From: a virus
Taxonomy: Duplodnaviria; Heunggongvirae; Uroviricota; Caudoviricetes
Direction: 5' to 3' (one strand)
IMG/VR virus record: IMGVR_UViG_2778261452_000004
Location: 1-20,333 of that record
DNA: 20,333 nucleotides
Below are positions 1,794 to 20,333 of the stretch, in pieces (the stretch's first letter is position 1; the number at the start of each line of letters is the position of its first letter). The translations under genes were made by a program, and so were the position numbers. A model generated the notes under the pieces. That model was not told the DNA's origin and searched no databases. It was given only the letters and a program-made list of their open reading frames with translations.

Positions 1794-2072
1794 TCAGCGC
1801 CTTCGTAATACAAAGATTTTTGAAACGTTCCCACGAGCACGAACCACCAGCACGCAGAACAGCAGGTTAAAAAACACTTCCAGCCAGCCCGTTGCTAACG
1901 GGCGACCACACAGATAGCTGAGGGGCGCAAAGGCATACAGCAGCATCAGCAACCAGGCCAGCCATGACATCAGCGGTTTATGTCTGGAATCACGACGACG
2001 ATAAAAAAAGAGCGTCAGCACGATAACCGTGCATAACGCCACATTCAGCAATCCGGGAAGGTTACTTAACAT
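1794..2072 (-). CDS. Small two-TM membrane protein in the lysis cassette (holin/antiholin-like), 92 aa
   Basis: Track ORF 1794..2126 trimmed to ATG at 2072, preceded by GGAGGAGG; two hydrophobic segments; sits between holin and endolysin, overlapping the holin 3' end by 11 nt. Confidence 0.5.
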   Translation of the reverse strand: MLSNLPGLLNVALCTVIVLTLFFYRRRDSRHKPLMSWLAWLLMLLYAFAPLSYLCGRPLATGWLEVFFNLLFCVLVVRARGNVSKIFVLRRR

Positions 2073-2454
2073 TGCCGCCTCCTCCACCCCGCAGGCGGGA
2101 GAACAGGCCGGACACCAGCGATGCAATATCCTGCTGGTGGATGAACGAGAGAATCTTCACCGACACCACCGCCACCAGCACCGCACACAGTGCATCCGCC
2201 GATGTACCGTCATAACCTGTTTTTGATGCAATCCAGGCTGACAGCACATGCGCACCCAGCACGCCAACGATAAACGACACCAGAAAATGCGCTGCCACAC
2301 GCCAGGCAGATAGTGCCTGCGGCATTGTGGCCACAAACAGCGCCCCGGCAAATGCGCCAAACACAATCCCGAAATCCGTTCCGGTAAACAGCCCGAATAC
2401 CGTCGCCCCGCCGAGCGCCGCAGCCGTGCCGGAACCGGATAAGGGTTCAGACAT
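2062..2454 (-). CDS. Putative holin, three predicted TM helices (GTA-type 3TM holin-like), 130 aa
   Basis: Track ORF 2062..2523 trimmed to ATG at 2454 (AGGAG 7 nt upstream). Gly/Ala-rich hydrophobic helices; first gene of the lysis cassette directly after a terminator. Confidence 0.6.
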   Translation of the reverse strand: MSEPLSGSGTAAALGGATVFGLFTGTDFGIVFGAFAGALFVATMPQALSAWRVAAHFLVSFIVGVLGAHVLSAWIASKTGYDGTSADALCAVLVAVVSVKILSFIHQQDIASLVSGLFSRLRGGGGGNVK

Positions 2455-2472
2455 ACTTTTTCTCCTGTAAAT

Positions 2473-2494
2473 AAAAAAGGGCCACTGTCGGCCC
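2473..2494 (-). terminator. Rho-independent terminator-like hairpin just upstream of the holin (late-operon tR'-type barrier)
   Basis: Minus strand reads gggccgacagtggccc followed by tttttt, about 20 nt before the holin start. A second GC hairpin (gcgccggacgtggcgc, 2562-2577) lies further upstream. Confidence 0.4.
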
Positions 2495-2633
2495 GTAAAA
2501 AAACAACACCCCGTCAAAGGCACCCGCAGATACCTTTTGTGTGGTGTTATCTGATGTGATGTGCGCCGGACGTGGCGCGGATATAAAAAAGGCCCGCCGC
2601 AGCGAGCCTGTTTTCAATGAGTGCAAAATTCAA

Positions 2634-3377
2634 TTATTCTTGAGTAACACTTAAACTCATCTCATTGAATGCAGCCATCCTGTAACCTGCCGGTGTAACA
2701 CCAAAATAACTCCTGAATACGCTGATAAAATAAGATGTAAAATTATAGCCACACTGAGCAGCGATTCTGTTGATGGCGCAACGAGATTGATTCAACAGCA
2801 TTGCTGCCATTCTCATTCTCTCTGTAAGCAACAACTCACTGAAACAGGTGCCTTCTTCTTTCAGTCTTTTTTTTAACAAACTTTCACTGATACATAACCG
2901 CGAAGACACATCTCTCAGAGTCCAGTTTGCTGCAATGTCCGTACGAAACAATGCACTAAGCCTGTCACTAATATTGCCAATACACGCGGTCAGAAACGAC
3001 GAAAACATTTTCTCTGATGAGAAAAACGCCAGACACGAAAAGGAAAGCATTTCCGCTAAATTGTCCGTATGAATCTTTTCCTCACAAAGATAATCAATCA
3101 GGATGCCCATCAATTCTGCCTTCGGAAAACTCACGCAAAGATATCGTGGTATTTGCCGGACTAAAACTACATCCTGTTTTTCGTCTCCACACAACAGGTA
3201 ACGGCTAATTGTCGATTCACTGAGACTTATTCGCCGAAAACATTCCGAAAAGGGCAATAACGATCCAGCTCCCCCCCTGACAAGAAGTGCACTACCACTT
3301 TCAAGAGAGAGCTCTTTTCCTTCAAAGAGCACAACAAACGGGGAATGAACAAAAACAACAGAACAGGCTTCATTCAT
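2634..3377 (-). CDS. AraC/XylS-family transcriptional regulator (prophage moron), 247 aa
   Basis: C-terminal AraC-type HTH signature (…RIAAQCGYNFTSYFISVFRSYFGVTPAGYR). Track ORF 2634..3530 trimmed to ATG at 3377, because the upstream in-frame stretch contains a terminator hairpin and an AT-rich promoter-like segment. Confidence 0.8.
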   Translation of the reverse strand: MNEACSVVFVHSPFVVLFEGKELSLESGSALLVRGGAGSLLPFSECFRRISLSESTISRYLLCGDEKQDVVLVRQIPRYLCVSFPKAELMGILIDYLCEEKIHTDNLAEMLSFSCLAFFSSEKMFSSFLTACIGNISDRLSALFRTDIAANWTLRDVSSRLCISESLLKKRLKEEGTCFSELLLTERMRMAAMLLNQSRCAINRIAAQCGYNFTSYFISVFRSYFGVTPAGYRMAAFNEMSLSVTQE

Positions 3378-3499
3378 ATCAATTGCCCTGACATTACTGG
3401 TCACAAGATAAGTATATATCGATTTACAAAAATACAAGCCGAAAGACCAGTATTCGCAACCACCAGCACGTTTTATGTTCTCTGCCGTTTTTCGGACAT

Positions 3500-3521
3500 A
3501 AAAAACCCGCTCAATGGCGGG
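3500..3521 (-). terminator. Rho-independent terminator about 85 nt downstream of the Q-like gene (candidate tR')
   Basis: Minus strand reads cccgccattgagcggg followed by tttttt (plus strand 3501-3521: aaaaa cccgc tcaatg gcggg). Confidence 0.5.
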
Positions 3522-3606
3522 TTGTATCAAAGTTCATGCGCTTGGTTCACCTCGCGATACAGCTTTGCGAAGCTTAGCAAAATTGAAGCGGTTTATGCGT
3601 AAAAAA

Positions 3607-4149
3607 TCAAGCCGTTTTTTGAGCGAATGATTCTCGCATAGGAATGTATAGCGCATACTCAGCAACGGCCAACCAATTAGCAATTCGCTTTTCGCATGTG
3701 CTAAAACACCACTCTGGGTGTGCATCATTTAGCAATTCAGCCATTTTGCGTTTGGTCATCCCCCGCCCCTCATACCGTTGACGAAGGACGCTAATCAATC
3801 CTGGATGCTCTGCCAGCACCTCACTTATGACCCGATCAATACATAACGCCTCTGCATCAGTACAATGCGCCAGCCAGCTCTTTTGCTTACCGTTAATCAT
3901 ATCCCGCAAAAAAGCCTCAAGTTCAGACTTGTTCAGACCTGCTTTTTTCATCCTCCGGAGCGCCTCGTTAATTGCCGTTTTTGTCAGCTTTTTAGAGGCC
4001 AACAACTGGTTGAACATATTCCCCGTCTTACCGCCGCCAATATACGACCAGCGCCCCCACATGCGCAGTTTTCCCTGAATCCAGACACTTTCCAGCGTGG
4101 TGAGACGAAGGTGTTCCCCGCTTTTGCCTGTATTTGTTGGGTAAATCAT
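3607..4149 (-). CDS. Putative late-gene antiterminator Q, 180 aa
   Basis: Track ORF 3607..4269 trimmed to ATG at 4149, which overlaps the upstream stop as ATGA. Call rests mainly on position (last gene before terminator and lysis genes, after YbcO-like gene) plus a weak recollection of Q-like sequence; not verified. Confidence 0.5.
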   Translation of the reverse strand: MIYPTNTGKSGEHLRLTTLESVWIQGKLRMWGRWSYIGGGKTGNMFNQLLASKKLTKTAINEALRRMKKAGLNKSELEAFLRDMINGKQKSWLAHCTDAEALCIDRVISEVLAEHPGLISVLRQRYEGRGMTKRKMAELLNDAHPEWCFSTCEKRIANWLAVAEYALYIPMRESFAQKTA

Positions 4150-4436
4150 AAATAACCTTCCTTTCTCCAGATTTCTTGCGTGCGAAAAACACCTTCTGCA
4201 TGCATCAGGCGTAATTCTTCTTTGGTGTAATCGCTTGTTTTTACCCGCCCGTCGATTAAATCGTGGCACGAGCTACAGGCAATCGCTGCCTGCATATCGT
4301 GTGGCTTTATCGCCGTTCCGCACGTTCCCGCCAGTCGGTAATGCGCCAGCACAGACGTTTCGGGATTGTGATTGCAGTAGCCAGGAATTCTGACCTGGCA
4401 CATCTGGCCCCGCGCCGCTTTACGTAAATCCACCAT
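4146..4436 (-). CDS. YbcO-like DUF1364 protein (putative Zn-binding nuclease of the nin region), 96 aa
   Basis: Sequence (…LRKAARGQMCQVRIPGYCNHNPETSVLAHYRLAG…) matches my recollection of DLP12 YbcO; Cys/His-rich; start overlaps the upstream gene stop (TAATG). Confidence 0.75.
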   Translation of the reverse strand: MVDLRKAARGQMCQVRIPGYCNHNPETSVLAHYRLAGTCGTAIKPHDMQAAIACSSCHDLIDGRVKTSDYTKEELRLMHAEGVFRTQEIWRKEGYL

Positions 4437-5501: not shown

Positions 5502-5657
5502 TTACTCCTCAGGTTCGTAAGCTGTGAAGACAGCGACCTCCGTCTGCCCGGTTCGGATTCGTACCTCGCAGAGGTCTTTCCTCGTTACCAGCGCCGTCAC
5601 AATGACGGTTAAACAGATGACGATCAGGGCGATTAACATCGCCTTTTGCTGCTTCAT
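5502..5657 (-). CDS. hok: Hok/Gef-family type I toxin, 51 aa
   Basis: MKQQKAMLIALIVICLTVIVTALVTRKDLCEVRIRTGQTEVAVFTAYEPEE matches HokD/Gef-type toxins as recalled. Track ORF 5502..5714 carries an in-frame 19-codon upstream extension; the canonical Hok start is ATG at 5657. Confidence 0.85.
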   Translation of the reverse strand: MKQQKAMLIALIVICLTVIVTALVTRKDLCEVRIRTGQTEVAVFTAYEPEE

Positions 5658-5830
5658 AGCCTGCTTCTCCTTGCCTTTCGACACGTAAGAGGCTAACCTA
5701 CATGTGCAAAGCATGAAATTGGCCTCAGATTAATGTTAAGCGTCTTGCCGGACGCGTAATGTTAACTGGGGCTTTTCTCTATCTGCCTTTTGGTGTTCAT
5801 GCCTGAGGCAGATAGCCTCAAGCACCCGCA
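5658..5830. promoter_or_regulatory. hok leader region; expected site of promoter, mok start and antisense Sok RNA (plus strand)
   Basis: Inference from the known hok/sok architecture; the region holds several hairpins (gcgtcttgccggacgc at about 5740-5755; atctgcct…aggcagat at about 5782-5816). Sok ends not determined. Confidence 0.3.
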
Positions 5831-6214
5831 GCAATTCTAACTATCCAATAGATCAATGCCAACTTCTTTTCCTGCAACATCTCTCATCATAAGTGACCGA
5901 AATTCATCCAATCAGCACAAAAGAAACATTTAAAGCGTGAATGCTACCGAACGTTCATTTCAATTACATCGTTTTGATTTTTAACAGTTTTCACCTCAAC
6001 AAATCAAATGGCATTAGCATTCATCATGGAAGAAAGACTGATAAAAATGATCATTTTCAATGACTTATGATCACACCGGGTATTGCCAAGTCATTCCTTT
6101 TACGCCAGGATACCCACAAGTGAGTAGTCGAGGAGAATTTGCCAATTTTTGCGAAATAAATTTCAATGTCCGAAGAACCATTAATTGTTAATTGATTCTG
6201 TATAAGGTATTAAC

Positions 6215-7312
6215 ATGACAATTTCATATATTCCTATTCTGAAAGCGAAACGTTCTGAGTTATCAGCTTTATCGCAGCTATCCATTGAAAAGAAATCAAA
6301 AATTTTGCCATTACTCGAAATTGAACCAGTGCCAATTGACCCTGATTCAGGTATTGCCTTAAAGAGTTATAACGAGACTCTTATAGAGTTCGGAAAGAAA
6401 GTCTCAAAATCTTGCTCAGATATGCAAGGTGTTTATATTGATGGATTATTAATTGAAGAGCATTTTATTTCTCCTGAAGATCATTACCCTATAATAAATG
6501 CGGTTAATCAAGTTAGAGATATGGGGATAAGAGTTATTCCTGTCAGTTCACCAACTCGCCCATCTAACTATAAAAGAGCGATTGATGAATTAATGCAGAA
6601 TGAAATATGCTTGAGATTAACCACGTTAGATCTGGTTAACCCACAATTAATAACGCATTACATTAATCATCTGGGAATTCCTTTATCAAATATTGATATA
6701 ATTATTGACTTAAGAGATGAGTTAACCGAGGATAAACTTAATTCCGGCGAACTATATACTTTGGCAATGGGATTGATAAACAATCTGGCGCACCTCAATG
6801 AATACAGAAAAGTGATTCTTTCTGGGGGTTCATTTCCTACAGATCTCAGTGATATTTCTGTTGGTCTATATTCTCAACCTCGAATCGAGTGGATTTTATG
6901 GCAGAGTTTAATGAATAGAAAAGAACTTGCCAGAAATGTGATTTATAGTGATTATGGAGTACAGCACCCCGACTTTAATAGGCTTTCGACGCGATTCCCT
7001 AGCGTATCTGCCAGCGTCAGATACTCTGGAGATAATGACTTTTGGGTATTTCGAGGAAGAGTAGCTAATCGCTTTGGTTATGAACAATATGGTAAACATA
7101 GTGAGGATATTCTTGCTCATCGAGAATATTCAGGGCCTACATTCTGTGCGGGAGATAGAGACATAGAATATTATGCAAACGAGTATCAAGCCTACAAAGC
7201 CAATCCCTCTGGTAACTATAAATTTGGTAGCCCAGAGGTATGGCGTAGGATTGGGCAAAACCATCACATAACTAAGGTTGTTGAGCAACTCGCCACTCTT
7301 TACGGGCTTTAA
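6215..7312 (+). CDS. 'Beta protein'/sce7725-family protein, 365 aa; candidate defence-module component
   Basis: Complete track ORF with AAGG ribosome-binding site; strongly AT-rich, A/T-ending codons unlike the flanking phage genes; N-terminus MTISYIPILKAKRSELSAL resembles the Beta_protein family as recalled (unverified). Confidence 0.8.
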   Translation: MTISYIPILKAKRSELSALSQLSIEKKSKILPLLEIEPVPIDPDSGIALKSYNETLIEFGKKVSKSCSDMQGVYIDGLLIEEHFISPEDHYPIINAVNQVRDMGIRVIPVSSPTRPSNYKRAIDELMQNEICLRLTTLDLVNPQLITHYINHLGIPLSNIDIIIDLRDELTEDKLNSGELYTLAMGLINNLAHLNEYRKVILSGGSFPTDLSDISVGLYSQPRIEWILWQSLMNRKELARNVIYSDYGVQHPDFNRLSTRFPSVSASVRYSGDNDFWVFRGRVANRFGYEQYGKHSEDILAHREYSGPTFCAGDRDIEYYANEYQAYKANPSGNYKFGSPEVWRRIGQNHHITKVVEQLATLYGL

Positions 7313-7850
7313 GTTTAACTCGAACAGCTTCACGAAGCTCGCCAACATCCATACTATTGGCGAGTTTTGACCATAAGACGCGTTTAGGTTTATTTTTCAA
7401 ATTCTGTAGCTCCCCTGCATCACTTAATAGGGAAAGCAATTCATCTTTCCAAAGAAGCATTGTTAAGGAAAGTTTGTCCACTTGTGGATTCAACTTGCTA
7501 GTTCGAATTGTTTTTAAATGGATACCTTGCCGTGCACCTTGCGTAACTTGCTTTATCCCCCACCATGATGGAACTATGCTTAAAGCATCATAAAGATGGC
7601 AATCAGAGACAACCAACGTTACTTTATCCATCACAGATGAGTAATGTTGCACCTGCGCTGGTAATCTGAGCAAGTTATCACTCTTGCTCTTCAACTCATA
7701 ACCATGTATAAGCCCATTGATCACTGCTATATCAGCTCTGCTAGCCCCTAGATTCATCGTAAACTCATCAATGATTAGGGTGTCAGGATCTTTATGATGA
7801 TCTCTCAGAATCTTGGCATGCACAGCCTTTCTTACATCAATGTCTCTCAT
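7272..7850 (-). CDS. sce7726-like protein with PD-(D/E)xK nuclease-like motif, 192 aa; candidate partner of the beta-like gene
   Basis: Complete track ORF convergent with the beta-like gene and overlapping it by 41 bp at the 3' ends; motif IIDEF…RADIAVINGLIHGYELKSK (D40, E52-x-K54) fits a restriction-endonuclease-like core. Confidence 0.8.
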   Translation of the reverse strand: MRDIDVRKAVHAKILRDHHKDPDTLIIDEFTMNLGASRADIAVINGLIHGYELKSKSDNLLRLPAQVQHYSSVMDKVTLVVSDCHLYDALSIVPSWWGIKQVTQGARQGIHLKTIRTSKLNPQVDKLSLTMLLWKDELLSLLSDAGELQNLKNKPKRVLWSKLANSMDVGELREAVRVKLKARKEWRVAQQP

Positions 7851-13507: not shown

Positions 13508-14017
13508 TTATTCGAAGCGCTTAGTGCAAGGGTTCCATGCTTCAAATATTAGTTCCTCATAGTCGGGATCGAGTTGAAAATGGGAGCTATTGCCTAATGA
13601 ACACTTTCTAACAAAACGAATTATTCCCATCCTGACAAGCAAGGCTGTACTTTGATTTTCAGGACAAAGCGTAAGTAGGTCATTGAACTGGAGGAATGAT
13701 TCAATAATACGAATTTGTTCTGCATTTAGCGAATTCAGATTTTTTAGCATTTTGCGCTTTTTTACAAAATCCCGAATCAGGTAGAACATTCTCAAGAAAA
13801 GGATTACTACTCTATCAAGGATTAAAGTCGAGACAAAGGCTATGCTGAAGCAAAATAGCTGCATGGAATATGGAATGGCGCTTTTCTTTTCCAGATACTC
13901 TGACAAGTTTTCTGGTACCAACATTAATATCAGAAAAAATATAACTATAGTAATCATAAACCGACTAACTGATTTTTCGGCAAAGAATTTTGCCAATGTT
14001 AAAAGACTTTCTAACAT
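13508..14017 (-). CDS. sieB: Superinfection exclusion protein SieB-like membrane protein, about 169 aa
   Basis: Track ORF 13508..14140 trimmed to ATG at 14017; two strongly hydrophobic helices; position between the pL-proximal small genes and kil corresponds to sieB in Rac/lambda. Start uncertain. Confidence 0.65.
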   Translation of the reverse strand: MLESLLTLAKFFAEKSVSRFMITIVIFFLILMLVPENLSEYLEKKSAIPYSMQLFCFSIAFVSTLILDRVVILFLRMFYLIRDFVKKRKMLKNLNSLNAEQIRIIESFLQFNDLLTLCPENQSTALLVRMGIIRFVRKCSLGNSSHFQLDPDYEELIFEAWNPCTKRFE

Positions 14018-14292
14018 TTCAATAACTCTCAACTGTAAGGGTATTGAAATGTTAACACAAGCTCTCGCTGTAGGGGTATAGCAGAGACCACCGAAGCCCG
14101 GAGGTGGTGAAATAAAACCGGGCACAACACGAAGGCGCATTTCCGATATCCATAAAGAGTCGGTTTTGTCTGTTAAATTTAAATGGTGGGAGTGCGCCTC
14201 CGGTTGTAAATAACGACATTGCTGTGTGTAGTCTTGGCGGCATCAGTTTTTTCTTGAAGTTCGGCTGATGTCCGCCCCTTTTTAAAGTGAAT

Positions 14293-14913: not shown

Positions 14914-17547
14914 ATGAGCACTGATAAAGAAGAATTTGCACTATATTGCGAAGCAAAAAATGACAAAGTAAGAAAACGCCTAGGAATTAAAGGTGGTTTT
15001 TACTGGACTACAGCAAAAAAATTATCTGTTGCAATCTCCCGCTGCATTACCGCAATGGATGACAACGATTATGATGAAGACGACTTTAAAAAACCCGTCC
15101 GCGTCAATTTGCCCGTTGTTGACGACCTTCCGCCAGAAGGCGTGTTTGATACTGAATTCTGCAACCGCTATGAAAAAGGCGGGAAAGATGGCATCACAAT
15201 GACATTTATCGGCCCTTCCCCCTCTGTTCAAGACAAATCAGCCAGCACTGATAATACCAACATCAACGGCGAAGACATGACTGAGATTGAGGAGAGCATG
15301 CTTCTACCTGTCTCCGGTCAGGAACTGCCCATTCGTTGGCTTGCTCAACACGGCAGCGAAAAACCAGTAACGCACGTTTCACGCGACGAACTCCAGGCAT
15401 TACACATTGCACGGGCTGAAGAACTACCGGCTGTTACTGCCCTGGCTGTTTCCCACAAAACCAGCCTGCTCGACCCGCTGGAAATTCGCGAACTCCACAA
15501 ACTGGTTCGTGACACTGACAAAGTTTTCCCTAATCCTGGTAATTCAAACCTGGGACTGATAACTGCTTTTTTCGAAGCATACCTGAACGCTGACTACACC
15601 GATCGAGGACTGCTGACAAAAGAGTGGATGAAGGGTAATCGTGTTTCACACATCACTCGCACGGCTTCCGGTGCTAATGCTGGCGGCGGAAACCTCACCG
15701 ATCGCGGCGAAGGTTTCGTACACGATCTGACGTCACTGGCGCGCGACGTAGCCACTGGCGTACTGGCCCGTTCAATGGATCTGGACATCTATAACCTTCA
15801 TCCGGCACACGCTAAACGCATTGAGGAAATTATCGCTGAAAATAAACCGCCCTTTTCTGTTTTCCGCGACAAATTCATCACCATGCCTGGCGGGCTGGAT
15901 TATTCCCGCGCCATCGTGGTTGCGTCCGTAAAAGAAGCACCAATTGGGATCGAGGTCATCCCCGCGCACGTCACTGAATATCTGAACAAAGTACTGACTG
16001 AAACCGATCATGCCAACCCTGATCCGGAAATCGTGGATATTGCCTGCGGTCGCTCCTCTGCCCCGATGCCGCAGCGAGTAACAGAAGAAGGAAAACAGGA
16101 TGATGAAGAAAAACCGCAACCATCTGGAACAACGGCAGTTGAACAGGGAGAGGCTGAAACAATGGAACCGGACGCAACTGAACATCATCAGGACACGCAG
16201 CCGCTGGATGCTCAGTCACAGGTAAATTCTGTTGATGCGAAATATCAGGAACTGCGGGCAGAACTCCATGAAGCCCGGAAAAACATTCCATCAAAAAATC
16301 CTGTCGATGCCGATAAATTGCTTGCTGCATCACGTGGTGAATTTGTTGACGGAATTTGCGACCCGAACGATCCGAAATGGGTAAAGGGGATCCAGACTCG
16401 CGATTGTGTGTACCAGAACCAGCCAGAAACGGAAAAAACCAGCCCAGATATGAATCAACCTGAGCCAGTAGTGCAACAGGAACCGGAAATAGCCTGCAAT
16501 GCCTGCGGCCAGACTGGCGGGGATAACTGCCCTGACTGTGGTGCGGTGATGGGCGACGCAACATACCAGGAAACATTCGATGAAGAGAGTCAGGTTGAAG
16601 CTAAGGAAAATGATCCGGAGGAAATGGAAGGCGCTGAACATCCGCACAATGAGAATGCTGGCAGCGATCCGCATCACGATTGCAGTGATGAAACTGGCGA
16701 AGTCGCAGATCCCGTAATCGTAGAAGACATAGAGCCAGGTATTTATTACGGAATTTCGAATGAGAATTACCACGCGGGTCCCGGTATCAGTAAGTCTCAG
16801 CTCGATGACATTGCTGATACTCCGGCACTATATTTGTGGCGTAAAAATGCCCCCGTGGACACCACAAAGACAAAAACGCTCGATTTAGGAACTGCTTTCC
16901 ACTGCCGGGTACTTGAACCGGAAGAATTCAGTAACCGCTTTATCGTAGCACCTGAATTTAACCGCCGTACAAACGCCGGAAAAGAAGAAGAGAAAGCGTT
17001 TCTGATGGAATGCGCAAGCACAGGAAAAACGGTTATCACTGCGGAAGAAGGCCGGAAAATTGAACTCATGTATCAAAGCGTTATGGCTTTGCCGCTGGGG
17101 CAATGGCTTGTTGAAAGCGCCGGACACGCTGAATCATCAATTTACTGGGAAGATCCTGAAACAGGAATTTTGTGTCGGTGCCGTCCGGACAAAATTATCC
17201 CTGAATTTCACTGGATCATGGACGTGAAAACTACGGCGGATATTCAACGATTCAAAACCGCTTATTACGACTACCGCTATCACGTTCAGGATGCATTCTA
17301 CAGTGACGGTTATGAAGCACAGTTTGGAGTGCAGCCAACTTTCGTTTTTCTGGTTGCCAGCACAACTATTGAATGCGGACGTTATCCGGTTGAAATTTTC
17401 ATGATGGGCGAAGAAGCAAAACTGGCAGGTCAACAGGAATATCACCGCAATCTGCGAACCCTGTCTGACTGCCTGAATACCGATGAATGGCCAGCTATTA
17501 AGACATTATCACTGCCCCGCTGGGCTAAGGAAAATGCAAATGACTAA
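14914..17547 (+). CDS. recE: Exodeoxyribonuclease VIII RecE, 877 aa
   Basis: Full-length track ORF; sequence recognised as Rac RecE (C-terminal nuclease domain); GAGGT ribosome-binding site; overlaps recT start. Confidence 0.95.
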
Positions 17548-18405: not shown

Positions 18406-18600
18406 ATGAGATATGACAATGTTAAACCATGTCCATTTTGTGGTTGTCCATCAGTAACGGTGAAAGCCATTTCAGGATATTACCGAGCGAAGTGTAACGG
18501 ATGCGAATCCCGAACCGGTTATGGTGGAAGTGAAAAAGAAGCACTCGAAAGATGGAATAAACGAACCACTGGAAATAATAATGGAGGTGTTCATGTATAA
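18406..18600 (+). CDS. ralR: Restriction alleviation protein RalR (Lar), 64 aa
   Basis: MRYDNVKPCPFCGCPSVTVKAISGYYRAKCNGCESRTGYGGSEKEALERWNKRTTGNNNGGVHV recognised as Rac Lar; Cys4 zinc ribbon; track ORF 18367..18600 trimmed to ATG at 18406. Confidence 0.9.
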   Translation: MRYDNVKPCPFCGCPSVTVKAISGYYRAKCNGCESRTGYGGSEKEALERWNKRTTGNNNGGVHV

Positions 18601-18802
18601 AATTACCGCCACTATTGAAAAGGAAGGTGGCACTCCTACTAACTGGACAAGATATTCAAAATCTAAACTAACGAAATCAGAATGCGAAAAAATGCTCTCA
18701 GGTAAAAAAGAAGCAGGCGTTTCCAGAGAGCAGAAAGTAAAACTGATAAATTTTAATTGCGAGAAACTTCAGTCCTCGAGAATTGCATTGTATTCAAATT
18801 AA
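18593..18802 (+). CDS. ydaC: YdaC-like small protein, 69 aa
   Basis: Track ORF 18521..18802 trimmed to ATG at 18593 (GGAGGTG 6 nt upstream), overlapping the ralR stop. Confidence 0.75.
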   Translation: MYKITATIEKEGGTPTNWTRYSKSKLTKSECEKMLSGKKEAGVSREQKVKLINFNCEKLQSSRIALYSN

Positions 18803-19097: not shown

Positions 19098-20333
19098 ATG
19101 TCTAAATTACCAACAGGTGTCGAGATTAGAGGTAGATACATTCGCATCTGGTTCATGTTTCGAGGAAAACGATGTCGGGAAACATTAAAAGGCTGGGAGA
19201 TTACAAACAGTAATATTAAAAAGGCCGGAAATTTAAGAGCGCTGATAGTTCATGAAATAAACTCCGGTGAATTTGAGTATTTAAGACGTTTTCCCCAGTC
19301 CAGCACTGGGGCAAAAATGGTGACAACGAGAGTCATAAAAACGTTCGGAGAGCTTTGTGATATCTGGACAAAAATTAAAGAGACAGAGTTAACAACAAAC
19401 ACAATGAAGAAAACGAAATCACAATTAAAAACACTCAGAATAATAATTTGTGAAAGTACCCCGATATCACATATTCGTTATAGCGATATCTTAAACTACC
19501 GGAATGAACTGCTGCATGGAGAAACGCTTTACCTGGATAATCCAAGATCCAACAAAAAAGGAAGAACCGTGCGCACAGTTGATAACTATATCGCCCTGCT
19601 CTGTTCGCTGTTGCGTTTTGCGTATCAGTCGGGATTTATATCAACCAAACCATTTGAAGGAGTAAAAAAATTACAGCGAAACAGAATAAAGCCTGATCCG
19701 TTATCTAAAACAGAATTCAATGCATTAATGGAAAGTGAAAAAGGACAGAGCCAGAACTTGTGGAAATTTGCCGTTTACTCAGGACTTCGTCACGGGGAAC
19801 TGGCAGCTCTGGCGTGGGAGGATGTGGATCTCGAAAAGGGAATAGTGAATGTCAGAAGAAACCTGACGATACTTGATATGTTCGGTCCCCCAAAAACAAA
19901 TGCCGGGATCCGAACAGTAACACTACTGCAGCCTGCTCTTGAAGCACTGAAGGAGCAATACAAACTGACCGGGCATCATCGCAAAAGCGAAATCACCTTT
20001 TATCATCGGGAGTACGGCAGAACCGAAAAGCAAAAACTGCATTTTGTTTTCATGCCCAGGGTGTGTAACGGAAAACAAAAACCTTATTACTCGGTAAGCA
20101 GTTTGGGGGCAAGGTGGAATGCAGCAGTAAAACGTGCTGGTATTCGCCGCCGTAATCCGTACCATACGCGGCATACTTTTGCCTGCTGGCTGTTGACGGC
20201 AGGAGCGAACCCGGCATTTATAGCCAGCCAAATGGGGCATGAAACTGCGCAGATGGTGTATGAAATTTACGGTATGTGGATTGATGACATGAACGACGAA
20301 CAGATAGCCATGTTGAATGCGCGGTTATCGTAG
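19098..20333 (+). CDS. intR: Tyrosine site-specific integrase (Rac IntR-like), 411 aa
   Basis: Full-length track ORF ending with TAG at 20331-20333; C-terminal catalytic segment with conserved R/H-x-x-R/Y context (…HTRHTFACWLL…VYEIYGMW). Confidence 0.95.
   Translation: MSKLPTGVEIRGRYIRIWFMFRGKRCRETLKGWEITNSNIKKAGNLRALIVHEINSGEFEYLRRFPQSSTGAKMVTTRVIKTFGELCDIWTKIKETELTTNTMKKTKSQLKTLRIIICESTPISHIRYSDILNYRNELLHGETLYLDNPRSNKKGRTVRTVDNYIALLCSLLRFAYQSGFISTKPFEGVKKLQRNRIKPDPLSKTEFNALMESEKGQSQNLWKFAVYSGLRHGELAALAWEDVDLEKGIVNVRRNLTILDMFGPPKTNAGIRTVTLLQPALEALKEQYKLTGHHRKSEITFYHREYGRTEKQKLHFVFMPRVCNGKQKPYYSVSSLGARWNAAVKRAGIRRRNPYHTRHTFACWLLTAGANPAFIASQMGHETAQMVYEIYGMWIDDMNDEQIAMLNARLS

Follow-up and report, generated by a model that had tools for sequence, protein, structure and literature searches.

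The question raised by this locus is why a transcription regulator should sit between the late antiterminator gene and the lysis genes of a lambdoid prophage, and on whose promoters it acts. The locus lies in IMG/VR virus record IMGVR_UViG_2778261452_000004 (Caudoviricetes), positions 1 to 20,333 of which form the stretch of DNA analysed here (hereafter the window, whose numbering is used throughout). The gene in question encodes an AraC/XylS-family regulator of 247 amino acids and is located, as an initial annotation had proposed, between a Q-like gene and a holin gene, all three on the minus strand, a placement supported by Pfam and PHROG matches of both neighbours. It forms part of a moron-type cassette of ~950 bp, roughly at 2550-3500, in the variable slot that leads from Q to lysis, and the regulator encoded by this cassette probably acts on host promoters from the lysogen.

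The extent of the gene had first been given as 2634-3530, and an open reading frame (ORF) of that maximal length, with 298 amino acids and a TTG start, does exist. This extended frame was rejected as an artefact of maximal ORF calling; because the TTG at 3530 lies just upstream of the terminator hairpin T1 (described below), the frame crosses that hairpin. The true coding sequence occupies 2634-3377 (minus strand, 247 codons plus the stop codon) and begins with the ATG at 3377, and annotation of the gene in E. coli relatives by the Prokaryotic Genome Annotation Pipeline (PGAP) likewise gives 744 nt. The ATG start fits the relatives of the protein, since YdeO, GadW, AppY and the PatE-like and PsrB-like proteins all begin at an aligned M-x3-CSV motif; the N-terminus MNEACSVVF aligns with the YdeO start MSLVCSVIF, and Cys5 is invariant across the subgroup alignment.

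The family assignment of the initial annotation was confirmed by matches to PF12833 (HTH_18, E=1.9e-13, 50.9 bits for a cut-off of 33.6) and PF00165 (HTH_AraC, E=3e-13, 50 bits for a cut-off of 26.6) within residues 158-233, which place the protein in the AraC/XylS family. PHROG 1450 spans residues 3-233 (E=5e-56), and among the NCBIfam models YdeO matches best (E=4e-43), over nearly the whole protein (query residues 2-230), followed by GadX, HilD and others through the DNA-binding domain. Neither of the first two names can be transferred to the protein: as a YdeO orthologue it reaches 147.7 bits in NF007407, against a cut-off of 348, and as GadX it reaches 98.2 bits in NF007432, over the C-terminal half only, against a cut-off of 500. 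In the PDB the window protein matches the GadX DNA-binding domain (E=2e-22; 40% identity). Judged from the alignments, it belongs to the subgroup of YdeO, GadW, AppY, PatE and Psr, whose members have in common an N-terminal M-x3-CSV, a helix SESLLKK(K/R)L and a helix SYFI-x-VFR, with conservative changes in some of them; C5 never varies, while S6, the SESLLKK-x-L helix and the SYFI helix vary little or not at all. The recognition helices of the window protein, SESLLKKRLKEE and TSYFISVFRSY, carry this subgroup signature. A search of PDB sequences with a subgroup profile gave matches to the GadX DNA-binding domain (E=2e-51), to CsvR (query residues 17-235), to Rns and to ToxT (residues 24-234), which places the protein in the two-domain structural class of ToxT and Rns. 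It is therefore predicted to be a two-domain activator, in which residues ~1-130 would form an N-terminal regulatory or dimerisation domain and residues ~135-235 a double helix-turn-helix. An AlphaFold2 model from a 9-sequence alignment (mean predicted local distance difference test score 64, below 50 for residues 60-134) was too poor and was not used for the fold.

The comparison with PatE and Psr, the prophage-encoded AraC regulators of E. coli O157 to which the gene had initially been likened, bears out the analogy and also sets its limits. Full-length identity is 39% (over 234 residues) to ECs_0287 of strain Sakai (PatE-like), 37% to YdeO, 36% to WP_000301797.1 of strain EDL933 (PsrB-like), 35% to GadW and 30% to AppY. 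The window protein can be aligned along its whole length with the PatE-like and PsrB-like proteins and is of the same subgroup, but at less than 40% identity it is neither PatE nor Psr. The relatives share 28-37% identity with one another; as they are about equally distant from each other, the window protein appears as another deep branch of the subgroup and as nobody's orthologue. The reference proteins were assigned by island position and from reviews: PsrB (z2104) is taken as WP_000301797.1, in OI-57 at 1905274-1905987 of EDL933, and PatE (z0321, OI-8/CP-933H) as ECs_0287 of Sakai, which is the sole AraC gene in Sp1, the counterpart of OI-8/CP-933H. PsrA, which is 90% identical to PsrB, could not be placed in the same manner. 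Reviews locate psrA (z1789) in CP-933N/OI-50, and no AraC homologue was found by tblastn or phmmer (E<10) at 1625000-1690000 of EDL933 NZ_CP008957.1, perhaps because the re-sequenced assembly differs from the original one. That region encodes a 171-aa hypothetical protein with no Pfam match, and the Q-to-lysis slot of CP-933N/OI-50 in EDL933 contains a TerB pseudogene and DUF3927.

PatE has the highest identity among the characterised relatives, and both proteins are prophage-borne and 247 aa long. PatE-type genes (38-40% identity), however, are found at the far prophage end beside pin/tfa and not after Q, and a PatE orthologue was rejected on both counts, the 39% identity and the position after Q. 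The resemblance to PsrB extends to the locus. Both are AraC-like regulators of ~240 aa that align over their full length, and both loci show a DUF1133 Q gene, a T1-like hairpin, a common post-T1 leader, the regulator, a further stretch and a holin; the EDL933 order is DUF1133 Q, a 65-aa ORF, psrB, tRNA-Ile, tRNA-Arg, TerB, DUF3927, an esterase and the holin. The differences are the 65-aa ORF that precedes psrB, the tRNAs, TerB and esterase that trail it, and the identity of 36% to the probable PsrB, on which identity with Psr was also rejected. A PerC-family (pch) gene lies past the lysis genes in EDL933, and the Psr prophages are known to bear pch and effector genes. AppY, a prophage AraC regulator of the same subgroup, differs in position: it is found past the tail-fibre genes, at the right end of DLP12, whose Q-to-lysis slot is occupied by nmpC. 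YdeO, GadW and GadX have recognition-helix motifs in common with the window protein, whose gene is phage-borne, unlike that of YdeO, which is chromosomal and controlled by EvgA.

The initial annotation had equated the slot with the position of stx in phages encoding Shiga toxin (Stx) and of nmpC in DLP12, and this equation holds: besides nmpC in DLP12 and the probable psrB in EDL933, a Psr-like AraC gene precedes stx2 in an Stx2k phage (phiSTEC1575-Stx2k), where it follows Q and lies directly ahead of three tRNAs and stx2AB. In lambda-like isolates such as Lambda_2G7a, a 37%-identical homologue is flanked by Q, blc and a ybgA-like gene at one end and by the holin at the other, and a 42%-identical homologue is likewise found behind a PF03589 Q. 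In related prophages the slot is filled by four tRNAs and a tolA-like gene, and elsewhere by a methyltransferase, tRNA-Gly, TerB and DUF3927 or by other AraC genes. Like stx and other cargo of this slot (morons, in the sense reportedly given to the word by Hendrix and Juhala), the gene points in the direction of late transcription, has terminators on both sides and deviates in GC content, but it encodes a regulator and not a toxin, a porin or a tRNA.

The borders of the cassette were mapped by megablast of 2400-3700 against 5426 complete E. coli genomes. Several hundred genomes match solely 3502-3700 (Q and T1), others match solely 2400 to ~2550-2608 (the holin and its leader), and others match 2400-3526, with the AraC gene and holin behind a different Q. 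Q, T1 and ~65 nt beyond T1 are common to the four-tRNA-cargo prophage and the EDL933 psrB locus, while on the other side the holin leader (2455-2549, minus strand, including the terminator T3) is common to prophages that lack the AraC gene; the homology of this leader with a prophage carrying DUF3927/TerB cargo begins at ~2549. Homology with other-cargo prophages thus stops at ~3440-3502 and at ~2550, and these alignments delimit the AraC-specific DNA to ~2550-3439, which comprises the proximal leader, the gene and the terminator T2. The same Q is found with other cargo and the same holin after other cargo, the GC content of the AraC gene (41.8%) departs from that of Q (48.4%), the holin (59.0%) and the endolysin (50.3%), and the cassette has a terminator of its own. 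By three of the usual criteria, variable presence, own terminator and deviating composition, the element is a moron, while for an own promoter the leader offers a weak candidate (see below); the initial proposal of a moron in the Q-to-lysis slot is upheld by the swapped cargo of related prophages, the distinct GC content and the terminator.

Three intrinsic terminators lie on the minus strand of the region, where a scan detected 8 terminator-like sites against 2.8 expected. T1 (3497-3523, stem 3504-3523, -11.2 kcal/mol) is a hairpin with a U tract upstream of the AraC gene. T2 (2583-2609, stem 2590-2609), also followed by a U tract, lies ~25 nt past the AraC stop codon within cassette-specific DNA and is the strongest hairpin (-16.8 kcal/mol, z=-4.3, with 0 of 200 shuffles folding as well). 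T3 (stem 2479-2494, -10.8 kcal/mol, with a U tract) is located in the holin leader. The initial annotation had described the gene as bracketed by two hairpins, T1 and T3, both of which are real and on the same strand as the gene; T3 nevertheless belongs to the holin leader, and T2, the cassette's own terminator, had been overlooked. Read along the minus strand, the order is Q, T1, AraC gene, T2, T3 and holin, with solely intrinsic terminators in between.

This arrangement recurs in 44 IMG/VR prophage loci that belong to the lineage at a protein identity of at least 74%. T1 stands upstream of the gene in 41 of them, ending 125-127 nt before the ATG, with its stem intact in most loci and variation chiefly in the loop (ATTG/ACTG/ACCG/GTCG); T2 is retained in 37, and the complete series of T1, leader, gene and T2 in 36. 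About 37 of the 44 copies are co-oriented behind a Q gene (a count that depends on the reference set used), and the Q types ahead of the cassette include DUF1133 (two variants), two PF03589 types and a QuuD-like type. All copies behind Q precede a PF16931 holin or TerB. In prophages with the QuuD-like Q, a 162-aa ORF intervenes between Q and the T1-AraC cassette (L025, 3290-3778), so the slot can hold stacked cargo. T1 itself is common to Q modules that lack the AraC gene and to AraC cassettes behind other Q types, and homology breakpoints occur on either side of it, at ~3502 and ~3526; T1 looks like a recombination linker between modules.

The stretch between T1 and the ATG consists of two parts. 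The post-T1 leader (3440-3496, minus strand) is defined by alignment as common to prophages with other cargo; it aligns with the EDL933 psrB locus and partly with a tRNA-cargo locus (L007). It contains the Chi octamer GCTGGTGG at 3460-3467 (minus strand), at the mosaic junction and invariant in three prophages with different cargo. In the window this octamer occurs 4 times against 0.48 expected from shuffles, all within 1.7 kb (1844-3467) around the lysis genes and the AraC leader, at a density close to that of the E. coli genome overall. The second part, the proximal leader (3378-3439, minus strand), comprises the 62 nt before the ATG; it is AT-rich and AraC-specific, with an AGGG (3386-3389) that stands 8 nt ahead of the ATG. 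Between cassette variants with protein identities of 83-99%, this leader keeps 84-100% identity.

From this organisation and the known activities of the relatives we infer how the cassette would work. In the lysogen, a weak promoter within the 62 nt that precede the ATG, probably silenced by H-NS or dependent on an activator, would give low expression of the gene, while T1 would stop transcription arriving from the Q side; as T1 should halt unmodified upstream transcription, expression in the lysogen needs a start within the proximal leader. The regulator would then bind AT-rich sites at host promoters, most probably those of gadE and hdeAB in the acid-fitness island, and the outcome would be altered acid resistance and linked traits. 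After induction, Q-modified RNA polymerase would cross T1, the gene, T2 and T3 on its way to the holin. Such late co-transcription seems structurally unavoidable, since the polymerase must traverse the cassette to reach the holin, barring a second late promoter downstream, and none was detected by a consensus scan of 2000-4400.

The choice of host targets follows from the subgroup. PatE and PsrB activate gadE, hdeAB and gadBC and bind the same segment of the hdeA promoter, and PsrA/B repress type III secretion via GadE and YhiF (PMC10877973); AppY directly activates gadE and other acid-stress genes, and YdeO, GadW and GadX are chromosomal AraC regulators of the same acid-resistance circuit (PMC10057817). 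Because every characterised subgroup member feeds into this circuit and the recognition helices are held in common, activation of acid-fitness-island promoters is the most likely function, with a chance that we put at even or slightly better. A regulator of phage genes, acting on lysis timing, superinfection functions or neighbouring cargo instead of host genes, would agree with the position inside the late operon and with the general statement that some prophage transcription factors mainly act on phage genes (PMC10057817). This alternative is nonetheless very unlikely, given that at least 4 unrelated Q types precede the cassette and either a holin or TerB/DUF3927 follows it; as it combines with several Q types and downstream modules, it is not bound to one phage circuit. 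The characterised members of the subgroup, moreover, all act on host promoters (PMC10877973, PMC10057817).

Several points weigh against a host-directed regulator expressed from the lysogen. At an identity of at most 39% to every characterised relative, the targets of the protein may differ from theirs. No sigma-70-like consensus site was found in 2000-4400, against 2.9 expected, and the promoter candidate picked out by eye, TTGTAT (3437-3432) and TATACT (3416-3411), is weak (its spacer has 15 nt, and 3 of 6 positions agree at -35) and fails the thresholds of the scan. With T1 directly upstream, the gene could be late-only. Damaged copies also occur, namely a truncated allele that consists of a 158-aa C-terminal fragment (61 member sequences) and a disrupted copy in E. 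coli C41 (L002, 3600-4800). In C41, tRNA-Arg and ~800 bp separate the disrupted AraC gene from the holin. As to the AT-rich promoter-like region of its own that the initial annotation had ascribed to the gene, the AT-rich 62 nt are present, while the promoter itself was not borne out by the empty consensus scan.

The first alternative to arise from these points is that the gene lacks an own promoter and its product appears only late, when Q antiterminates T1, in the manner of stx2, which is largely late-only and Q-dependent. Its role would then be confined to the induced or lytic subpopulation, where it might reprogram the dying host or the phage of neighbouring cells. The empty promoter scan agrees with this, as do the fixed distance of T1 from the ATG and the co-orientation of the gene with Q and the lysis genes in most of the loci. 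On the other hand, the proximal leader is AT-rich, cassette-specific and conserved, and a strong own terminator such as T2 is typical of independently transcribed morons; deletion of psrA, furthermore, has a phenotype in uninduced enterohaemorrhagic E. coli (PMC10877973), and the probable psrB occupies the same slot. We regard a late-only gene as unlikely, and expression from the lysogen as the probable state.

The second alternative, that the cassette is silent, decaying cargo that currently has no function, draws on the truncated and disrupted alleles, on the failure to detect a strong promoter and on rarity: the gene is present in 65 of the 5426 complete E. coli genomes (~1%), always on the chromosome. 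Opposed to it is the state of the gene. The initial annotation had named a pseudogene as one of the outcomes that would count against it, and the ORF of the window was found intact at 247 aa, with a ratio of non-synonymous to synonymous substitution rates (dN/dS) of 0.26-0.39 in both domains across alleles 74-87% identical; the AraC gene is under purifying selection. The window protein is 100% identical to at least 28 IMG/VR prophage copies, and more than 40 prophage loci, whose neighbouring genes differ, carry the majority allele at 99-100% conservation. Decay accordingly receives little credence, and a functional regulator of host genes is preferred. In a database of 5.8 billion proteins, the 99% cluster has 241 members, smaller clusters follow at 87, 85, 83 and 75%, and the next relatives reach only 42%. 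Carrier isolates come mostly from cattle, pigs, sheep, buffalo and farm environments. Among the isolated phages of INPHARED there was no homologue above 60% identity, and literature searches, which included the RefSeq accessions of the lineage, found no study of it.

A broader proposal can be attached to the preferred one, namely that the Q-proximal slot is a niche favoured by YdeO/Psr-type AraC regulators across lambdoid phages, with dual-mode wiring. Such genes follow at least 4 Q families and occur in an Stx2k phage as well as in lambda-like isolates, and the arrangement of T1, 125 nt and ATG would insulate the gene, allowing weak expression in the lysogen and strong expression under Q antitermination. 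In the subpopulation that undergoes it, induction would in this manner entail a burst of a regulator of host acid resistance or virulence, and the lineage described here, associated with livestock, could have targets other than gadE/hdeAB. Taken as a whole, this proposal is rather improbable.

The genes on either side of the cassette are those expected of a Q-to-lysis region. The Q-like late antiterminator gene (3607-4149, minus strand, 180 aa) is of the DUF1133 type; its product matches PF06576 (DUF1133) with 356 bits, Phage_antitermQ (PF06530) with 26.7 bits (cut-off 26) and PHROG 753, 'anti-termination protein Q-like', with E=1e-79. PGAP gives the gene as 543 nt in relatives, and the protein shares 82% identity with its DUF1133 counterpart encoded ahead of the probable psrB of EDL933. 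The interval between Q and T1 (3527-3606, minus strand) is presumed to be a pR'-like late-promoter leader. It is kept with the DUF1133 Q gene in prophages that bear other cargo and is unrelated (43-46% identity) where the same AraC cassette follows another Q; inspection by eye shows a candidate TTGATT-17-TTCAAT, followed by a -10-like TAAGCT, which the consensus scan did not pick up. Past the cassette, the lysis genes, all on the minus strand, comprise a first holin gene (2062-2454, PF16931), a second holin gene (~1794-2072, PF05449) and a GH108 endolysin gene (1247-1792, PF05838 and PF09374), the two holin proteins matching PHROG 198 and 217, each labelled 'holin'.

The window as a whole is the integrase-to-lysis half (int to bor) of a Rac-like lambdoid prophage of E. 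coli or a very close relative. It includes int (19098-20333, plus strand), a recE-like gene (14914-17547), YdaT-like and replication genes, hok/sok, DUF1367, YbcO-like nin genes, bor and a ybcV-like gene. The best complete E. coli genomes match it at 94-98% identity over merely 66-68% of its length, which marks the prophage as a mosaic. A match to the small RNA RalA (Rfam RF02694, 225 bits) at 18599-18777 on the minus strand supports the Rac-like identity, RalA being the antitoxin of the RalR/RalA system of the Rac prophage. A hok/gef-type toxin ORF (5502-5714, minus strand) overlaps an Rfam sok antitoxin match (5652-5827, minus strand, 118 bits). Between hok/sok and the replication genes lies a low-GC island (5850-7850, 33-41% GC), which may be a second moron or defence gene: it contains a 365-aa 'Beta protein' (6215-7312, plus strand, PF14350) with a PADLOC match to PD-Lambda-2_C (E=1e-41) and, convergent with it, a 192-aa gene (7272-7850, minus strand) that matches the PADLOC model 'cll'. 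A 210-aa ORF at 13508-14140 (minus strand) matches the SieB superinfection-exclusion model below threshold (25 bits, cut-off 26).

Prophage AraC regulators such as PsrA/B, PatE and AppY were already known to feed into the acid-resistance and virulence networks of E. coli, and one studied regulator, PsrB, probably occupies this same slot. What the window gene adds is an uncharacterised, separate lineage within the group, whose identity to the studied members does not exceed 39%. The find therefore extends a known pattern, leaves current concepts unchanged and is of modest interest. If activation of gadE/hdeAB proves true, the cassette would represent another phage-delivered route to acid tolerance in E. 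coli of the gut and the food chain, and its position just after Q would offer a simple system in which to compare the expression of such regulators in the lysogen and after induction. The most interesting point is whether regulators of this class are in general expressed in both modes, owing to the fixed arrangement of T1 and leader behind Q.

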